Assembly (NCBI GenBank): GCA_963664875.1
Contig: OY761611.1
Span: 3,616,001-3,680,000, forward strand
Length of the DNA: 64,000 nucleotides
Direction of reading: 5' to 3'
Source of the DNA: Candidatus Kapaibacterium sp.
GTDB taxonomy: Bacteria; Bacteroidota; Ignavibacteria; Kapaibacteriales; UBA2268
The position numbers and the translations under genes are program-made. Under the pieces are notes generated by a model that was not told the DNA's origin, did no database searches, and worked only from the letters and a program-made list of their open reading frames with translations. Each line of letters starts with the position of its first letter. Positions within the stretch are counted from its first letter, which is position 1. Positions 37,543-45,163 of this stretch are shown here, piece after piece.

Positions 37543-39015
37543 CTACTCTACTACAAATCCTTGAGATTTTTTTTCTATTCCGTTATCTATGACTAAGTAA
37601 TAAATACCTTTCTTCATATCCATGGTGTTGATTCTTTTGAGAGCAATTGCAGTTGTCGGGTCATATTCGAAATTGTTATCAAGCTTGCTCACAAGTTCCC
37701 CGATATAATTGTAGATGCTGAAGGAAGTCTTGCCTTTCGACTCAGGGTGTAGGTAAAAGCTGACATCTGTATATGTTTGTGCAGGGTTGGGTATTGCGTT
37801 AAAAGTAACTAAAGAAGGAATGGATTCGATTACATCAGTATCTGTAGCAAATGGGTCATACGCGATTACTCCTTGATACGCAGGAGCTGCTTGATTTCCA
37901 TCCGGATATATTATAACTCCGAACCACATCAGAGAGTCAGGAGTTACTTTGAATAGATGTCCGATGTAGCTATATGGTGGATTTTTTAATTCTAAATATG
38001 TATAAGTATTCGAATCTTTCGATTTATAATATAGCGAGGATTTTTGGACGTCCATACTTTTACCGTCTGTAAATATTACAAATCTGATGTCGTAGATATC
38101 ACAACTTCCGTTAGAATGAAATCCTGCAACATTATAAGTCTCCATATTTTCTTTCTCGTTTTCTACTATTTCAGGATGCCACTCTAATTTGTCTTCTAAG
38201 CCAACCTCTAATGTATTTAGATTGAATGAATAGATATTAGTACTTATAGGAGAGCAAAAGTGTAACTTATCCCTTATCTCATAAATAGTATTTATGTTTA
38301 GGGATTGCCAAAAGTTTTGTTCTAATTTATTGATACTGTCAATTACATAGTAATTATTATGACCTTGCTTGTCGAAACTTGCAATGCTGAGTTTTTCTTT
38401 TATGGCTAAATACCAATACTTTTTGTTGTAATTATATATTCCATTAGTGTTTGATAATGGGAACCCACCACTATTTTCAGATTTGATAATATCAAATGTA
38501 AAGTTATCTGAATTGAAAAAAATGAATCCCGGAAACGAAATAGTTGTTAATACAAATTTTTTGCCGATAAAACACCAGTTACCGTTTCCCAGATTATAAA
38601 TATAGTATATTGTCAAAGAATCCAAATCTTCGAGATAATCATTTAATCTGTATATGGAATCATTCCTTACAAATAGTAAATCTTGATTGTACTTTGTGAT
38701 ATATCCTTTCTCACTGTATTCAGTATATGGATCAACAGCATCTTTAAGTCCATTGCCTCTTTCAAAAACCTGATATTTGTAGAAATGATTGTCGTCCTCC
38801 AATATTTCAATTGGAATCAATGTATCACCGTCCTTACTAATCCAATTTGAATATAAAGTGCTGACATAAATATTATATAGCGAGTCGTAATCTACATCTA
38901 TTATAGCAGGCAAGTCTTTTGTTTTGCCCATTATAAGAGGTTTGCTCCATTTTCCTGCTTCTGTCGAAGACGTATAAATAAGCAAAATAAATAAAGTATA
39001 TAAATATAATTTCAT
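37543..39015 (-). CDS. T9SS type A sorting domain-containing secreted protein
   Basis: Signal peptide MKLYLYTLFILL; CTD AIPNPA...SIYNYIGELV...KKGIYYLVI...GFVVE. Confidence 0.85.
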   Translation of the reverse strand: MKLYLYTLFILLIYTSSTEAGKWSKPLIMGKTKDLPAIIDVDYDSLYNIYVSTLYSNWISKDGDTLIPIEILEDDNHFYKYQVFERGNGLKDAVDPYTEYSEKGYITKYNQDLLFVRNDSIYRLNDYLEDLDSLTIYYIYNLGNGNWCFIGKKFVLTTISFPGFIFFNSDNFTFDIIKSENSGGFPLSNTNGIYNYNKKYWYLAIKEKLSIASFDKQGHNNYYVIDSINKLEQNFWQSLNINTIYEIRDKLHFCSPISTNIYSFNLNTLEVGLEDKLEWHPEIVENEKENMETYNVAGFHSNGSCDIYDIRFVIFTDGKSMDVQKSSLYYKSKDSNTYTYLELKNPPYSYIGHLFKVTPDSLMWFGVIIYPDGNQAAPAYQGVIAYDPFATDTDVIESIPSLVTFNAIPNPAQTYTDVSFYLHPESKGKTSFSIYNYIGELVSKLDNNFEYDPTTAIALKRINTMDMKKGIYYLVIDNGIEKKSQGFVVE

Positions 39016-41161: not shown

Positions 41162-42205
41162 TTATTTTTCTAATTGATAGGGGTGAATCCCTTTCAAAAA
41201 CATTTCAGCTTCATTGACATCGTCTTCGCTGCCAATTATCACAGGGGTTCTTTGGTGTATAGAGTGAGGTTTGATACTTAATATCCTTCTTTCTCCGTCA
41301 ATTGCCCGTCCTCCGGCTTGTTCGACTATCATAGCCAAAGCGTTTGCCTCGTAAACTAATCGCAATTTTCCATTGGTATATTGAGAGTCTTTATAGTATA
41401 GATAAATACCACCATAGTGGAGAGTTCTGTGAATATCAGCGACACCTGTGGCGATATACCTTAGAGAGTAAGGTCGGTCGCCATCATCGGAAATCAAATT
41501 CAGATATTCCACATAATCCTGATTCCATTTGTGCCAGCGATTGAAATAGCCGACATTGGTAGAGTAAATATTGCCTTTTTGTGGTATTTTCAAATTTTTC
41601 TTCGTAAGCAAAAACTCGCCAAGAGTAGGGTCGTATGTAAATACATTAACACCATGTCCGGTTGTATAGACAAGGTTGGTCGATGAGCCATAAAGCACAT
41701 AGCCGGCAGCAACCTGCTTATATCCGGGTTGAAGCAAATCTTCCACTGTGCCCGGAGTTTCAGCTTTGAAGTCTAACCTTTTATAAACAGAAAAAATAGT
41801 ACCGATGGTAACATTAGCATCAATATTGTTGGAACCGTCTAATGGGTCAAAAGCAACTACATATTTGCCGTATCTGCCGTTGTCCGGTATGATTATATCA
41901 TCATTTTCTTCTGATGCCATGACACATACGTTCCCACCTTTGATTAGTGCACCTTTTATCACATCATTAGAATATGTGTCGAGCTTTCTGACCTGCTCGC
42001 CGTGAACATTAGTTTTTCTCGCCAATCCGAGTATATCATTGAGTCCGGCTCTTCTGACGTCTCTGGAGATAATACGGATTGCAAACGTAATATCATGTAA
42101 TAATGCTGAAAAATCACCTGTTGCTTCAGGGTGTAAATTTTCTTCCTGAGAAATATGGTGATCGATGGTTACTAATCTGTCAGTAGTAGAAAAAGGCATA
42201 ATCAT
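41162..42205 (-). CDS. fbp: Class 1 fructose-1,6-bisphosphatase
   Basis: NVHGEQVRKLD, ASEEN, FDPLDGSNN and KLRLVYEAN. Confidence 0.96.
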   Translation of the reverse strand: MIMPFSTTDRLVTIDHHISQEENLHPEATGDFSALLHDITFAIRIISRDVRRAGLNDILGLARKTNVHGEQVRKLDTYSNDVIKGALIKGGNVCVMASEENDDIIIPDNGRYGKYVVAFDPLDGSNNIDANVTIGTIFSVYKRLDFKAETPGTVEDLLQPGYKQVAAGYVLYGSSTNLVYTTGHGVNVFTYDPTLGEFLLTKKNLKIPQKGNIYSTNVGYFNRWHKWNQDYVEYLNLISDDGDRPYSLRYIATGVADIHRTLHYGGIYLYYKDSQYTNGKLRLVYEANALAMIVEQAGGRAIDGERRILSIKPHSIHQRTPVIIGSEDDVNEAEMFLKGIHPYQLEK

Positions 42206-42308: not shown

Positions 42309-42587
42309 CTATCCTTTTGCGAAGCTTTTGAACTGTTTCATTTTCAATCTGATAAATTGAACAGAGCAAGATAGCTCTTTAGCCAATTCTTTGCTGTCTC
42401 GTTTTCTATTTTCTTCAAGATATTTTCTAATAAAAGAATCCAATCGGGTTATCTTAGGTATATAAAATTGAGCTCCCGAGTTTGTCTCCATCAATTTTCT
42501 TACATTTTCTATTCCGATAATCGCTGCCAAATCTTGTAAATCATCAGTCAGGTCATCGAACTCGATTTTTGTGTAGATGTTTGCCAT
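42309..42587 (-). CDS. Mor/C-family transcription activator-like protein
   Basis: LAAIIGIENVRKLME..SGAQFYIPK followed by a C-terminal HTH KELAKELSCSVQFIR, matching the Mu Mor pattern GG..YIP. Confidence 0.75.
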   Translation of the reverse strand: MANIYTKIEFDDLTDDLQDLAAIIGIENVRKLMETNSGAQFYIPKITRLDSFIRKYLEENRKRDSKELAKELSCSVQFIRLKMKQFKSFAKG

Positions 42588-42606
42588 TTTGATTTCTCCC
42601 TATATG

Positions 42607-42730
42607 AGTAATATATACTTGCATAAGTAAATTATATATATTATTTTGAATTAGTAACATTATTTGTCAAAATCAAAAAGATATTTACTAAAAAGAGTAA
42701 TATTTACCTACTATATAAGTAAATATTACT
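42607..42730. promoter_or_regulatory. Operator array AGTA-N5-TACT in a divergent promoter
   Basis: AGTAATATATACT 42607, AGTAATATTTACC 42696, AGTAAATATTACT 42718, plus a half-match ending 42689. Confidence 0.65.
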
Positions 42731-42748
42731 TGTTGTGCAAGAAAAAAA

Positions 42749-43138
42749 ATGGATGCTCTAAAAAAAAATATCGGAAGACGGCTAAAAGAAATCAGATTGT
42801 TTGTATTCGACGGCATGACTATCAATGTTTTTGCCGAAATGCTCAGCGAGAAGCCTGCAAATATATCTAATTATGAGCAAGGCAAAGCAAATATACCGAA
42901 TAGAGTGCTTGTGGAGTTATATCACAAAGGCATAAATCCCATATACATCCTGACAGGTGAGGGGGCAAAAAAAAGAGAGAATTTTACAGAAGCTAATAGC
43001 GGCGAAGCAACTTTAAACCGCTCAAAACTCGAATACCTTATTGAAAAAGCCGATGAAATGACTGCAGCCGCCGGGGACATTAAGAAGTATGTTTTAGAAC
43101 AACAATCGAAATCTGATGCCGATACAAACAACAAATGA
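42749..43138 (+). CDS. XRE/CI-like HTH transcriptional regulator
   Basis: IGRRLKEIR ... FAEML ... ISNYEQGK ... INPIYILTGEG (CI-type N-domain signature); C-terminal TAAAG. Confidence 0.88.
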   Translation: MDALKKNIGRRLKEIRLFVFDGMTINVFAEMLSEKPANISNYEQGKANIPNRVLVELYHKGINPIYILTGEGAKKRENFTEANSGEATLNRSKLEYLIEKADEMTAAAGDIKKYVLEQQSKSDADTNNK

Positions 43139-43718
43139 TTTGAGCTCTTTAAGCGATTACAGTTTATATGGATTAGTCAAAAAATATGTAACGCATGAAC
43201 TGCTTGGCTTTACTCACTCTGCTGCGAAGTTAGACAGATGCATCGCTGAATGCAAAAAGAGAAGAAAGGGTATCTTTATGCGTGCAAGCGAAGATGCCTA
43301 CCTCGAATTTCTTGCAAAATCAGATAAGCAAAGCGAAATATTTAAGACTATCTCTTTTGCTTATGCCTCAAAAGAAGACATTCTAAATATTGCTCCCGAA
43401 ATATCCAATCTACTGCCAGATGAAGCGGATTTTTCGAAATATGATATATATAAAGTATCCGGTGATTCAATGATAAACGCCGGAATTGCCGACGGAGAGC
43501 ACATATTAGCTGAAAGAATCAACGAAGTCAAAGACGGCGACATTGTTGTAGTCAGATACATGGAAAGGATATTTATTAAAAGATACAAACTAATAGAAGG
43601 CACTATTACTCTTCATTCGGAAAATCCTAAATTCCCTCCATTCAAAGTATATAACACAGAAAATTTACAAATACTCGGCAAAGTAAAATTCAAAATCAGC
43701 GTTGTGAGTGCAGAATAG
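43116..43718 (+). CDS. S24-family (LexA/UmuD-type) peptidase lacking an HTH
   Basis: VSGDSMINAGIADG (catalytic Ser), DGDIVV, IKR (catalytic Lys) and LHSENP. Confidence 0.88.
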   Translation: MPIQTTNDLSSLSDYSLYGLVKKYVTHELLGFTHSAAKLDRCIAECKKRRKGIFMRASEDAYLEFLAKSDKQSEIFKTISFAYASKEDILNIAPEISNLLPDEADFSKYDIYKVSGDSMINAGIADGEHILAERINEVKDGDIVVVRYMERIFIKRYKLIEGTITLHSENPKFPPFKVYNTENLQILGKVKFKISVVSAE

Positions 43719-43837
43719 TTGTTTTGATACATTCCCCTTTACTACAATTCTATCTTTTCAAATCCGTAAACGAACTCTCGAAGATATTTGTTATTTTTGT
43801 AATCTTGATATTTTTTCCTAAGTACTTGGATTATATA

Positions 43838-45163
43838 ATGCAAAAAAGAAAAGTATATATAGAAACTTATGGCTGTCAGATGAATTTCAGTGATTCTGAA
43901 ATTGTTGCAGGGATTTTGAATGCAACCGAAAAATATACTATGATAGCCGAACCTGACTCTGCTGACATTATTTTCCTTAATACCTGTTCTGTCAGAGATA
44001 ACGCTGAGCAAACTATTTTCAAAAGGCTAGAGCATCTAAAACATTACAAAAAGAAAAAAGGCAAGCTCGTGGTGGGTATTTTGGGTTGCATGGCTGAAAG
44101 ACTTCGGGATAAACTAATTGGTCACAACAACCTTGTCTCCATAGTTGTCGGTCCTGATGAATATAGGAAAGTGCCGGCTCTGTTAGATCAGGCTTATCAG
44201 GGAGAAGCCGGGATAGCTGTCAAATTAAGCAGAGTAGAAACTTACGAAGACATTTTACCGCTCAGAGTTGAGGGTATCTCAGCCTGGATTTCTATCATGA
44301 GGGGCTGTGATAATTTTTGCTCTTATTGCGTTGTGCCTTATACTCGAGGCAGAGAGCGTTCGCGACCTGCAAGTTCTTTACTGGCAGAAATAAAAGACCT
44401 CGCCAATGGCGGAATTAAAGAAATTACTCTTTTAGGACAAAATGTAAATAGCTATAACGATAAGGAAGGCAATCTTGATTTTCCGGATTTGCTTGCTGCT
44501 ATAGCTGAAGCAGTGCCGTCTGTAAGAATAAGATATACAACGTCGCACCCTAAGGATATGAGCGACAAGCTAATTGAAGTGATGGCAGCTCATAAAAATA
44601 TATGTAATTATATACATTTGCCTGTGCAATCAGGTTCTGATAAAGTGCTTAAGGAAATGCTTAGAGAATACACAGTTGAGCACTATTTAGACCGCATCAG
44701 AAAATGCCGCGAACTAATACCCAATGTATCGTTTTCAACTGACATAATTGCCGGTTTTCCCGGAGAAACAGTGGAAGAACATGAAATGACTCTTGAGCTT
44801 ATGCGAAATGTTCGTTACGACGGGGCTTATATGTTCAAATACTCTCCAAGAGAAAATACAAAAGCGTATAAAATGGAAGATGATGTGCCGGAAGATGAAA
44901 AAATCAGAAGGTTGAACGAAATAATTGAGCTTCAGCATGAGATTGCCCGTGAATTGAATAATGAAGAGATCGGACGCATTCATGAGGTGCTTGTAGAGGG
45001 GCCAAGTAAAAAAAATGAAGATGAATGGATGGGGAGAAGCGACACAAACAAAGTAGTTATTTTCCCGAATGCGGACAGGAAGTATAGAATTGGTGATATT
45101 GTTAATGTAAAGATTACTGATTCTACTTCTGCTACTCTAAGAGGAGAAAGACTTGAGCCTTAG
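43838..45163 (+). CDS. miaB: tRNA-i6A37 methylthiotransferase
   Basis: TYGCQMN, NTCSVR, GCMAE, CDNFCSYC, C-terminal TRAM domain. Confidence 0.96.
   Translation: MQKRKVYIETYGCQMNFSDSEIVAGILNATEKYTMIAEPDSADIIFLNTCSVRDNAEQTIFKRLEHLKHYKKKKGKLVVGILGCMAERLRDKLIGHNNLVSIVVGPDEYRKVPALLDQAYQGEAGIAVKLSRVETYEDILPLRVEGISAWISIMRGCDNFCSYCVVPYTRGRERSRPASSLLAEIKDLANGGIKEITLLGQNVNSYNDKEGNLDFPDLLAAIAEAVPSVRIRYTTSHPKDMSDKLIEVMAAHKNICNYIHLPVQSGSDKVLKEMLREYTVEHYLDRIRKCRELIPNVSFSTDIIAGFPGETVEEHEMTLELMRNVRYDGAYMFKYSPRENTKAYKMEDDVPEDEKIRRLNEIIELQHEIARELNNEEIGRIHEVLVEGPSKKNEDEWMGRSDTNKVVIFPNADRKYRIGDIVNVKITDSTSATLRGERLEP

Follow-up and report, generated by a model that had tools for sequence, protein, structure and literature searches.

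Self-cleavage is the textbook behaviour of S24 regulators such as LexA, phage CI and UmuD, and the cases in which they are known to cleave in trans involve engineered fragments or the two subunits of a homodimer. The question raised by the locus described here is whether a LexA/CI-type switch can also occur naturally as two polypeptides, a repressor that carries the cleavage site and a separate protease that cuts it. The locus lies in a 64,000-nucleotide (nt) stretch of Candidatus Kapaibacterium sp. DNA (assembly GCA_963664875.1, contig OY761611.1, positions 3,616,001 to 3,680,000), which is the window to which all plain coordinates refer. It comprises an open reading frame (ORF) for a 129-amino acid (aa) XRE-type helix-turn-helix (HTH) repressor (42749-43138, + strand), an ORF for a stand-alone 200-aa S24 Ser/Lys peptidase (43116-43718, + strand), and a divergent ORF for a 92-aa Mor-like protein (42309-42587, - strand), which is presumed to be the output of the switch. 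The S24 start codon precedes the HTH stop codon, and the two ORFs overlap by 23 nt in different frames; a preliminary description of this DNA had read the arrangement and the overlap in the same way. We consider it an evenly poised matter whether the two proteins form a naturally divided LexA/CI-type switch that operates by cleavage in trans.

The Ala-Gly tail of the HTH protein

The HTH occupies residues ~9-72 and is followed by a variable linker and a C-terminal tail, which reads ...EMTAAAGDIKKYV. Within the tail, Ala106-Ala107-Ala108-Gly109 (codons 43064-43075, + strand) contains the proposed scissile bond between Ala108 and Gly109. In an alignment of 48 non-redundant orthologues the linker varies in both length and sequence and ends in the consensus [AVLS]-[AVS]-A-G. 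Position P3 is Ala in 25, Val in 19, Leu in 3 and Ser in 1 of the sequences, and P2 is Ala in 40, Val in 6 and Ser in 2; P1 is Ala in 48/48 and P1' is Gly in 47/48, the exception being Asp in L006. Because these two residues are so nearly invariant in a linker that has no other conserved column, the motif is more than a chance occurrence. Between 3 and 25 residues follow it to the C-terminus, and in 9/48 orthologues the tail after the Gly is merely 3-5 residues long. From the 49 loci of the survey described below, seven duplicates of loci already included, the near-duplicates L034 and L037, L048 (a 472-aa variant) and L049 (no HTH ORF found) were dropped from this alignment.

An exhaustive profile search of 1.84 billion representative proteins gave 49 clusters at E<=1e-30, 107 at E<=1e-10 and 1474 at E<=1e-3. 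Among the 49 closest clusters, 47 are <=200 aa long, and A-G is retained at the motif in 43; the remaining six have AAAD, VAAN or AAAA, lack the motif (two clusters), or belong to a 497-aa multi-HTH protein. Conservation of the AAG motif had been put forward earlier as a check on the proposed switch, and by both counts the motif is near-invariant. The HTH domain itself matches Pfam weakly and below the cut-offs (HTH_19, 20.1 bits against 30.2; HTH_3, 18.2 bits against 23), and aligns by hhalign with the HTH of a fused relative, P0203, at a probability of 99%.

Two unusual relatives extend beyond the motif. The HTH orthologue of L048 (2941-4359, + strand; protein P0162), 472 aa long, continues after ..YKVAAGAPKK.. 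with repeats of ..PAPIVEEAPRRRGRPRLS.., which are AT-hook-like (RGRP), and P0179 (253 aa) has a long Lys/Glu-rich stretch beyond the AAG.

The S24 partner and its N-terminal domain

The S24 protein matches Pfam Peptidase_S24 (PF00717) with an E of 1.1e-19, above the cut-off, over positions 37-115 of the 116 in the profile. The first 36 positions, which we take to be the region of the cleavage site in LexA-type proteins, are unmatched. At E<=0.1 its Pfam matches are limited to Peptidase_S24 and Peptidase_S26, with no metalloprotease family among them; PADLOC gives no match, and the score against the NCBIfam UmuD subfamily is 59.5 bits (cut-off 110). By direct reading, GDSM contains Ser118 (codon 43467-43469) and IKR contains Lys155 (codon 43578-43580), and both residues are invariant in 39/39 aligned S24 partners. 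Direct reading also finds neither Ala-Gly nor Cys-Gly in residues 1-117. On both points, an intact Ser and Lys and the lack of a site ahead of the Ser, the preliminary description is borne out.

The AlphaFold2 model of the protein has a mean predicted local distance difference test (pLDDT) of 91.2, with helices at about residues 14-29, 36-48 and 51-69, a strand, two short helices, and a beta core at 109-194 that corresponds to the catalytic core (43440..43697, + strand). Foldseek matches are confined to this core, over ~85-103 residues, and are to LexA C-domains and UmuD' (E 3e-9 to 5e-7). The N-terminal ~100 aa (43116..43415, + strand) form a helical domain of no recognised family, which may be a sensor or docking domain. 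Modelled separately it reaches a pLDDT of 78.4, and it has no Foldseek match at E<=0.001 and no ESM Atlas hit above 0.80; its best VIA Z score of 6.2 is within the noise range for helical bundles. The idea that it is a decayed HTH found no support, the hhalign probability against the HTH alignment being 0.08%.

In 17/24 same-family genomes the N-domain was detected. Elsewhere the S24 partner consists of the bare core, at 88-139 aa (L050, L039, L061), or bears a different N-domain (L040, L047, L053). Two of the bare cores, of 103 aa in L039 and 88 aa in L050, begin at the HTH stop codon. The earlier statement that the AAG would be too distant from the Ser even if the genes were fused is therefore right for the genus of the window and does not extend to loci such as these two.

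The N-domain bears on what might trigger the switch. It may be that the split proteins do cleave and that the stimulus is something other than DNA damage, the N-domain sensing phage infection, a metabolite or a partner protein, which we regard as improbable on the whole. LexA, lambda CI and UmuD respond to activated RecA, this genome encodes RecA, and the bare-core partners in L039 and L050 have no N-domain. A different stimulus would fit a domain present in 17/24 genomes that has no known fold and is replaced or absent in L039, L040, L047, L050, L053 and L061, as expected of an exchangeable sensor. It would also fit the lack of a regulon and of SOS genes among the neighbouring ORFs scanned with Pfam, and RecA-independent autocleavage has been reported for IrvR (PMC7101444).

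Other S24 proteins occur in this genome and its relatives. One orphan (G000:C1:1852464-1853018, - strand) has GDSM and the Lys, with no HTH and no Ala-Gly before the Ser. Tandem S24 genes of ~140 aa lie ~38 kb before the window (G000:C1:3577266-3578135, - strand, equal to L066:1009-1878) and also at L012:858-1794, and their defects are complementary: one protein has S-A-G and lacks the catalytic Ser, with GKEL or GREM where GxSM would be expected, and the other has GESM and the Lys and no Ala-Gly. S24 matches arranged in tandem recur in many relatives, and no umuC-like gene adjoins the pair. It may represent a second division of enzyme and substrate among the S24 proteins of this lineage.

Conservation and origin of the split

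The 200-aa S24 protein, N-extension included, is present in 4/4 same-genus genomes at 55-63% identity and occurs at full length in further genera at 30-37% identity, without internal stops in either case. In a profile search at E<=1e-10 the HTH gene was found in 23/24 same-family genomes and in 0/16 genomes that represent ten further families of the order. It is single-copy in 22/23, a second weak match (E 9.8e-13) being present in G023, and according to the collated coordinates an S24 match adjoins it on the same contig in 19/23. One same-family genome that is 100% complete (G006) is without the HTH gene, the N-domain and any S24 match together.

When one genome per species was surveyed, 49 loci were obtained, with the HTH ORF in 48, the S24 gene next to it in 43 and the Mor-like gene in 48, divergent in 44 and directly upstream on the same strand in 4. 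The order of the three genes, with the Mor-like gene transcribed away from the HTH and S24 genes, is kept; within the genus the locus adjoins fbp, and outside it the neighbourhood differs. The junction between the HTH and S24 ORFs differs in nearly every genus, with overlaps of 23, 8 or 4 nt, gaps of 0, 2 or 5 nt, and in L010 the same frame interrupted by a stop; such variety excludes an error in the sequencing as well as a recoding site that is conserved. Six loci have no adjacent S24 gene, and whole-genome searches made for five of them each found a single full-length N-domain S24 gene at another place (E 5e-58 to 6e-64), among unrelated neighbours and with no HTH gene alongside. Since the two genes are present and unlinked in these five genomes, they co-occur and yet need not be encoded together. 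As judged by these sequence comparisons, the split is real and old.

That a single fused repressor has been broken by a sequencing error or a mutation to a pseudogene, or is made through a programmed frameshift, is thus a next to negligible prospect. The 23-nt overlap in another frame does resemble a frameshift junction, and fused relatives exist at a distance. The type of junction varies by genus, however, five genomes or more have the two genes unlinked, and 47/49 of the closest clusters are <=200 aa long, on which grounds we rejected frameshifting and readthrough. A word-based search among longer proteins found no fused close homologue, which is weak evidence in the same direction. Both the three-gene synteny and the split architecture, which the preliminary description had left to comparison with relatives, are conserved, the latter across variable junctions and unlinked genes; within the family, close homologues are unfused and keep the AAG, and it was fusion or loss of the motif that would have told against the proposal.

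Fused proteins with the order HTH-AAG-S24 appear only among the distant hits of the HTH profile (P0203, P0207, P0243). In P0203, which is 243 aa long, ..IRGQIAAGEP.. is followed by NGKSM and KK. The S24 partners of L011, L017-L020, L032 and L045 contain a relic, G[AG]A[K/R]xxP (GASKYH in L027), and in a MAFFT alignment this segment falls on the AAG of the fused relatives. In L017 the relic and the Ser are 35 residues apart, the same spacing as between Ala84 and Ser119 of E. coli LexA. In its sequence the relic looks like a disabled cleavage site in which the Gly has been replaced by Lys or Arg; the segment has been lost from the genus of the window. Given the fused relatives and the relic site, the family would seem to derive from a CI-type repressor whose parts came to be encoded by two genes, one of which appears to have kept the HTH and the site and the other the active site while losing its own site.

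A further explanation would see in the locus the decayed immunity region of a prophage, with a CI-type repressor and a Mor-type early activator and no present function for the host. The PHROG matches of the three ORFs are indeed to a repressor/CI-like protein, a transcriptional regulator and a late activator, and Mor is a family of phage Mu. We consider this highly unlikely in view of an HTH gene that is found in 23/24 genomes of the family in differing chromosomal neighbourhoods, three intact reading frames with conserved key residues, and Pfam-matched ORFs within 26 kb that include no phage family.

Control region and the presumed Mor-like output

The divergent control region (42588..42748) is 161 base pairs (bp) long and contains three candidate operator sites. 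Two are palindromes of the form GTAA-N3-TTAC, GTAATATTTAC at 42697..42707 and GTAAATATTAC at 42719..42729, spaced by 22 bp, the second of which ends 20 bp before the start codon of the HTH ORF. A degenerate copy, GTAATATATAC at 42608..42618, precedes the start codon of the Mor-like ORF by 21 bp and forms a direct repeat with the copy at 42711-42732 (77% identity). In the window the pattern GTAAWWWTWAC has 7 strand-matches against 1.37 expected, a number reached in 0/100 shuffles. The exact GTAA-N3-TTAC recurs in 19/28 orthologous control regions, repeatedly with the 22-bp spacing (L020, L023, L033), and L020 and L033 have three sites each.

Over the 3.83-Mb genome GTAA-N3-TTAC occurs 134 times, where 132 occurrences would be expected, and nowhere outside this control region do two sites fall within 70 bp. 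Because the pattern is not enriched genome-wide and the pair is unique, the repressor would be a local switch and not the master of a regulon, and we rejected the possibility of a global regulator. One lone exact GTAAATATTAC palindrome at 38069-38079, inside a 506-aa Por_Secre_tail ORF, is most likely due to chance. A sigma-70 promoter scan gave 8 matches against 6.7 expected, which is no more than chance, and such a scan is uninformative for this phylum.

The Mor-like protein matches Pfam Mor (PF08765) below the cut-off (E 1.2e-4, 22.4 bits against 24.9) and a PHROG late transcriptional activator family with an E of 2.2e-6. Among 39 orthologues, 34 match Pfam Mor at E<=0.01, the best at 1.1e-8. 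The best PDB hit of the 39-orthologue profile is phage Mu Mor (1rr7, E 5.9e-4) over residues 54-117, and the alignment includes a central GG..YIP ahead of the C-terminal HTH, as in Mu Mor. Residues G38, Y42 and P44 are invariant in the 39 orthologues.

In most other genera a fourth gene, which encodes an acidic protein of 70-120 aa, separates the operators from the Mor-like gene and shares the strand of the latter (L010:597-881, -; L011:2724-3074, +; L009:2583-2813, +; and ~25 further loci). The protein has a conserved motif, D[LI][RK]F[IL][IL][DN]DY[LF], and an acidic tail, and its PADLOC and NCBIfam matches are none or noise. The gene is absent in the genus of the window, where the intergenic region is just 161 bp. 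Neither PADLOC nor NCBIfam has a specific model for the HTH, S24 or Mor-like proteins or for the acidic ORF.

Proposed mechanism

We propose tentatively a mechanism which may well not hold in all its parts, namely that a stand-alone S24 protease with a sensor of unfamiliar fold cuts a separate repressor at a LexA-type Ala-Gly bond near its C-terminus, unmasking an Ala-Ala-COOH degron and releasing a Mor-type activator. The HTH protein would bind the GTAA-N3-TTAC sites and repress the Mor-like gene; its own operon would probably be repressed too. Its tail would present Ala-Ala-Ala-Gly to Ser118 and Lys155 of the S24 peptidase, and upon a signal the peptidase would cut the tail in trans. By analogy the signal may be activated RecA on single-stranded DNA, possibly read through the N-terminal helical domain. 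The loss of just 3-25 residues would likely expose an ...Ala-Ala-COOH end, resembling the latent ClpX degron of the LexA N-fragment, and it is possible that the repressor at the same time loses its tether to the protease, which is presumably dimeric. Cut repressor would then be destroyed or weakened, and the Mor-like activator would be made and switch on its targets; in most other genera the small acidic protein is co-encoded with this activator.

In E. coli, the LexA fragment has Val-Ala-Ala at its end. The genome of the window encodes both RecA and ClpX. Because so few residues are removed, a ClpXP degron would be the most economical route of inactivation. Passages in PMC5742171 and PMC10584840, citing Neher 2003, describe ClpXP C-degrons next to the cleavage site that are exposed by cleavage in LexA and IrvR. 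For trans action, a passage in PMC5342242, citing McDonald 1998, describes UmuD dimers in which the S24 active site cleaves the partner chain.

The two-component switch that was proposed in the preliminary description has come through the comparative checks on synteny, split and AAG conservation favourably in every case; its cleavage in trans, its trigger (DNA damage acting through activated RecA) and its repression of the Mor-like gene are still what we infer from the arrangement of the parts.

Several observations weigh against the proposed mechanism. The RecA trigger is purely an analogy for a protein whose N-domain has no recognisable fold, and removal of 3-25 residues is not obviously inactivating; for the degron step, LexA and IrvR serve as the models. 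In Pfam the HTH and Mor-like proteins score under the curated cut-offs, 9/28 control regions lack the operator pattern in its exact form, and the further S24 proteins of the genome could act on the HTH tail. The P1' Gly is replaced in a minority of orthologues (AAAD in L006 and P0137, VAAN in P0142, AAAA in P0153) and the motif is absent from P0138 and P0144; a Gly-to-Asp change at P1' renders E. coli LexA non-cleavable. Where the Gly is lost the context AA..D[IM] is often retained (AAADD in L006, AAAAD in P0153), and because of this the motif may also serve in binding, or some lineages may be non-cleavable.

These retained contexts also speak for a non-covalent version of LexA, in which the AAG tail docks as a strand in the S24 cleft and is not cut, the S24 protein serves as a dimerisation or co-repressor module, and regulation is exerted through displacement of the tail or turnover of the S24 protein. 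Tails of 3-5 residues after the Gly in 9/48 orthologues, which make cleavage nearly inconsequential, and the pseudo-substrate-like GAA[K/R] relic of the S24 partner in several genera would be in agreement with docking. We nevertheless find it unlikely. A Ser118/Lys155 dyad that is invariant in 39/39 is unexpected for a purely structural partner, and the Gly found at P1' in 47/48 is needed for LexA-type catalysis and not for the docking of a strand. A complex prediction with the S24 protein and HTH residues 86-129, both given as alignments, scored 0.02 and 0.00; it was run with no controls and is uninformative either way.

The split pair is not the sole LexA-type protein of this organism. The genome also encodes a LexA homologue with LexA_DNA_bind and S24 domains outside the window (G000:C1:2890628-2891314, - strand, equal to L068:1084-1770). 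In comparison with P. aeruginosa LexA, this protein keeps the Ser and has T-E-G at the position of Ala-Gly and Arg in place of the catalytic Lys, a sequence which suggests that it may be non-cleavable. Non-cleavable LexAs are reported in some cyanobacteria (PMC7567884). As the LexA homologue has lost both Ala-Gly and the catalytic Lys, the split pair could be the actual cleavage-based stress sensor of the lineage, and the Mor-like activator could then pass the signal on to a regulon.

Relation to known systems

With LexA, lambda CI and PrtR (MEROPS S24) the pair shares the S24 fold with its Ser-Lys dyad, an HTH repressor with [AV]-A-A-G after a flexible linker, a divergent operator region, and fused HTH-AAG-S24 proteins that are detectable as HTH relatives. 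The circuit also resembles PrtR/PrtN of the Pseudomonas pyocins, in which an S24 repressor holds down a small activator gene. In contrast to these proteins, the DNA-binding part and the site are here separate from the protease and sometimes unlinked from it, the site is only 3-25 residues from the C-terminus of its chain, and the protease lacks an own Ala-Gly or Cys-Gly ~35 residues ahead of its Ser and carries in addition a helical domain of ~100 aa.

The logic of repressor and protease proposed here is that of ImmR/ImmA (ICEBs1), DdrO/IrrE (Deinococcus) and CapH/CapP of the cyclic-oligonucleotide-based anti-phage signalling system (CBASS), in which a separate, adjacent protease cuts an XRE repressor near its C-terminal part under stress. 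Whereas ImmA, IrrE and CapP are zinc metalloproteases, the protease here is a Peptidase_S24 with GDSM and IKR, and the site is a LexA-type Ala-Gly. The pair has a chemistry like that of LexA, CI and PrtR and an architecture like that of ImmR/ImmA, DdrO/IrrE and CapH/CapP, and is a member of neither group, because it is not one polypeptide with its own site and its protease is not a metalloprotease.

In size and fold the catalytic core is closest to UmuD' and the LexA C-domain. UmuD is ~140 aa long, has its own Cys/Ala-Gly arm, and is encoded with umuC and works with UmuC, whereas the S24 protein described here has 200 aa, no site of its own and miaB downstream. In UmuD, moreover, substrate and enzyme are one gene product that has no DNA-binding partner. 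Its active sites, according to PMC5342242, act in trans on the arm carried by the other subunit, which is the mode of action proposed here.

The non-canonical LexA of Bacteroidetes (COG2932, HTH_3 plus S24; Sanchez-Osuna et al. 2021, PMC8565304) comes from the same phylum-level neighbourhood and likewise joins a CI-like HTH with S24 and recognises short palindromes with an AT spacer (CTAA-N5-TTAG, and TTAC-AAATT-GTAA in one paralogue). That LexA is described there as fused, with its own Ala-Gly and with SOS regulons; the proteins described here differ in being split and in having their operators clustered at their own locus alone. Full-text searches of the openly available literature, supplements excluded, found no description of a split HTH/S24 pair.

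If the proposed cleavage in trans is true, the enzyme and substrate halves of S24 regulators can evolve as separate genes, and the pair would provide a clean system for the study of S24 substrate recognition free of intramolecular constraint. It would also join S24 chemistry to the logic of a protease plus an XRE repressor that has so far been described for metalloproteases. The ..VAAG.. motif would be a short portable tag cut by a dedicated small protease and could serve as a tool. The locus also marks an unexplored, near-universal regulatory circuit in a bacterial family rich in uncultured members, with a Mor-type activator as its presumed output.

Neighbouring genes

The locus is flanked by fbp, encoding FBPase (41162-42205, - strand), and by an ORF for a MiaB-type radical-SAM/TRAM protein (43724-45163, + strand), both identified by Pfam; these are the two flanking genes of the preliminary description, and its statement that no phage genes are near agrees with the wider survey. 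Over 26 kb (29.7-55.9 kb) we examined 15 further ORFs, 13 with a Pfam match and 2 without, and none of the 13 matches was to a phage family. These neighbours are mostly housekeeping enzymes, together with Por_Secre_tail, AAA_14/DUF4143 and UPF0102/NERD proteins, and by Pfam no polymerase gene adjoins the locus. In two other genera an ORF of ~94 aa, which is absent from the window, lies just 3' of the S24 gene (L007:2354-2635, + strand; L009:1187-1474, - strand), and the two copies are homologous, sharing ..GYLRGTV.G...CSWSR.T.KG...

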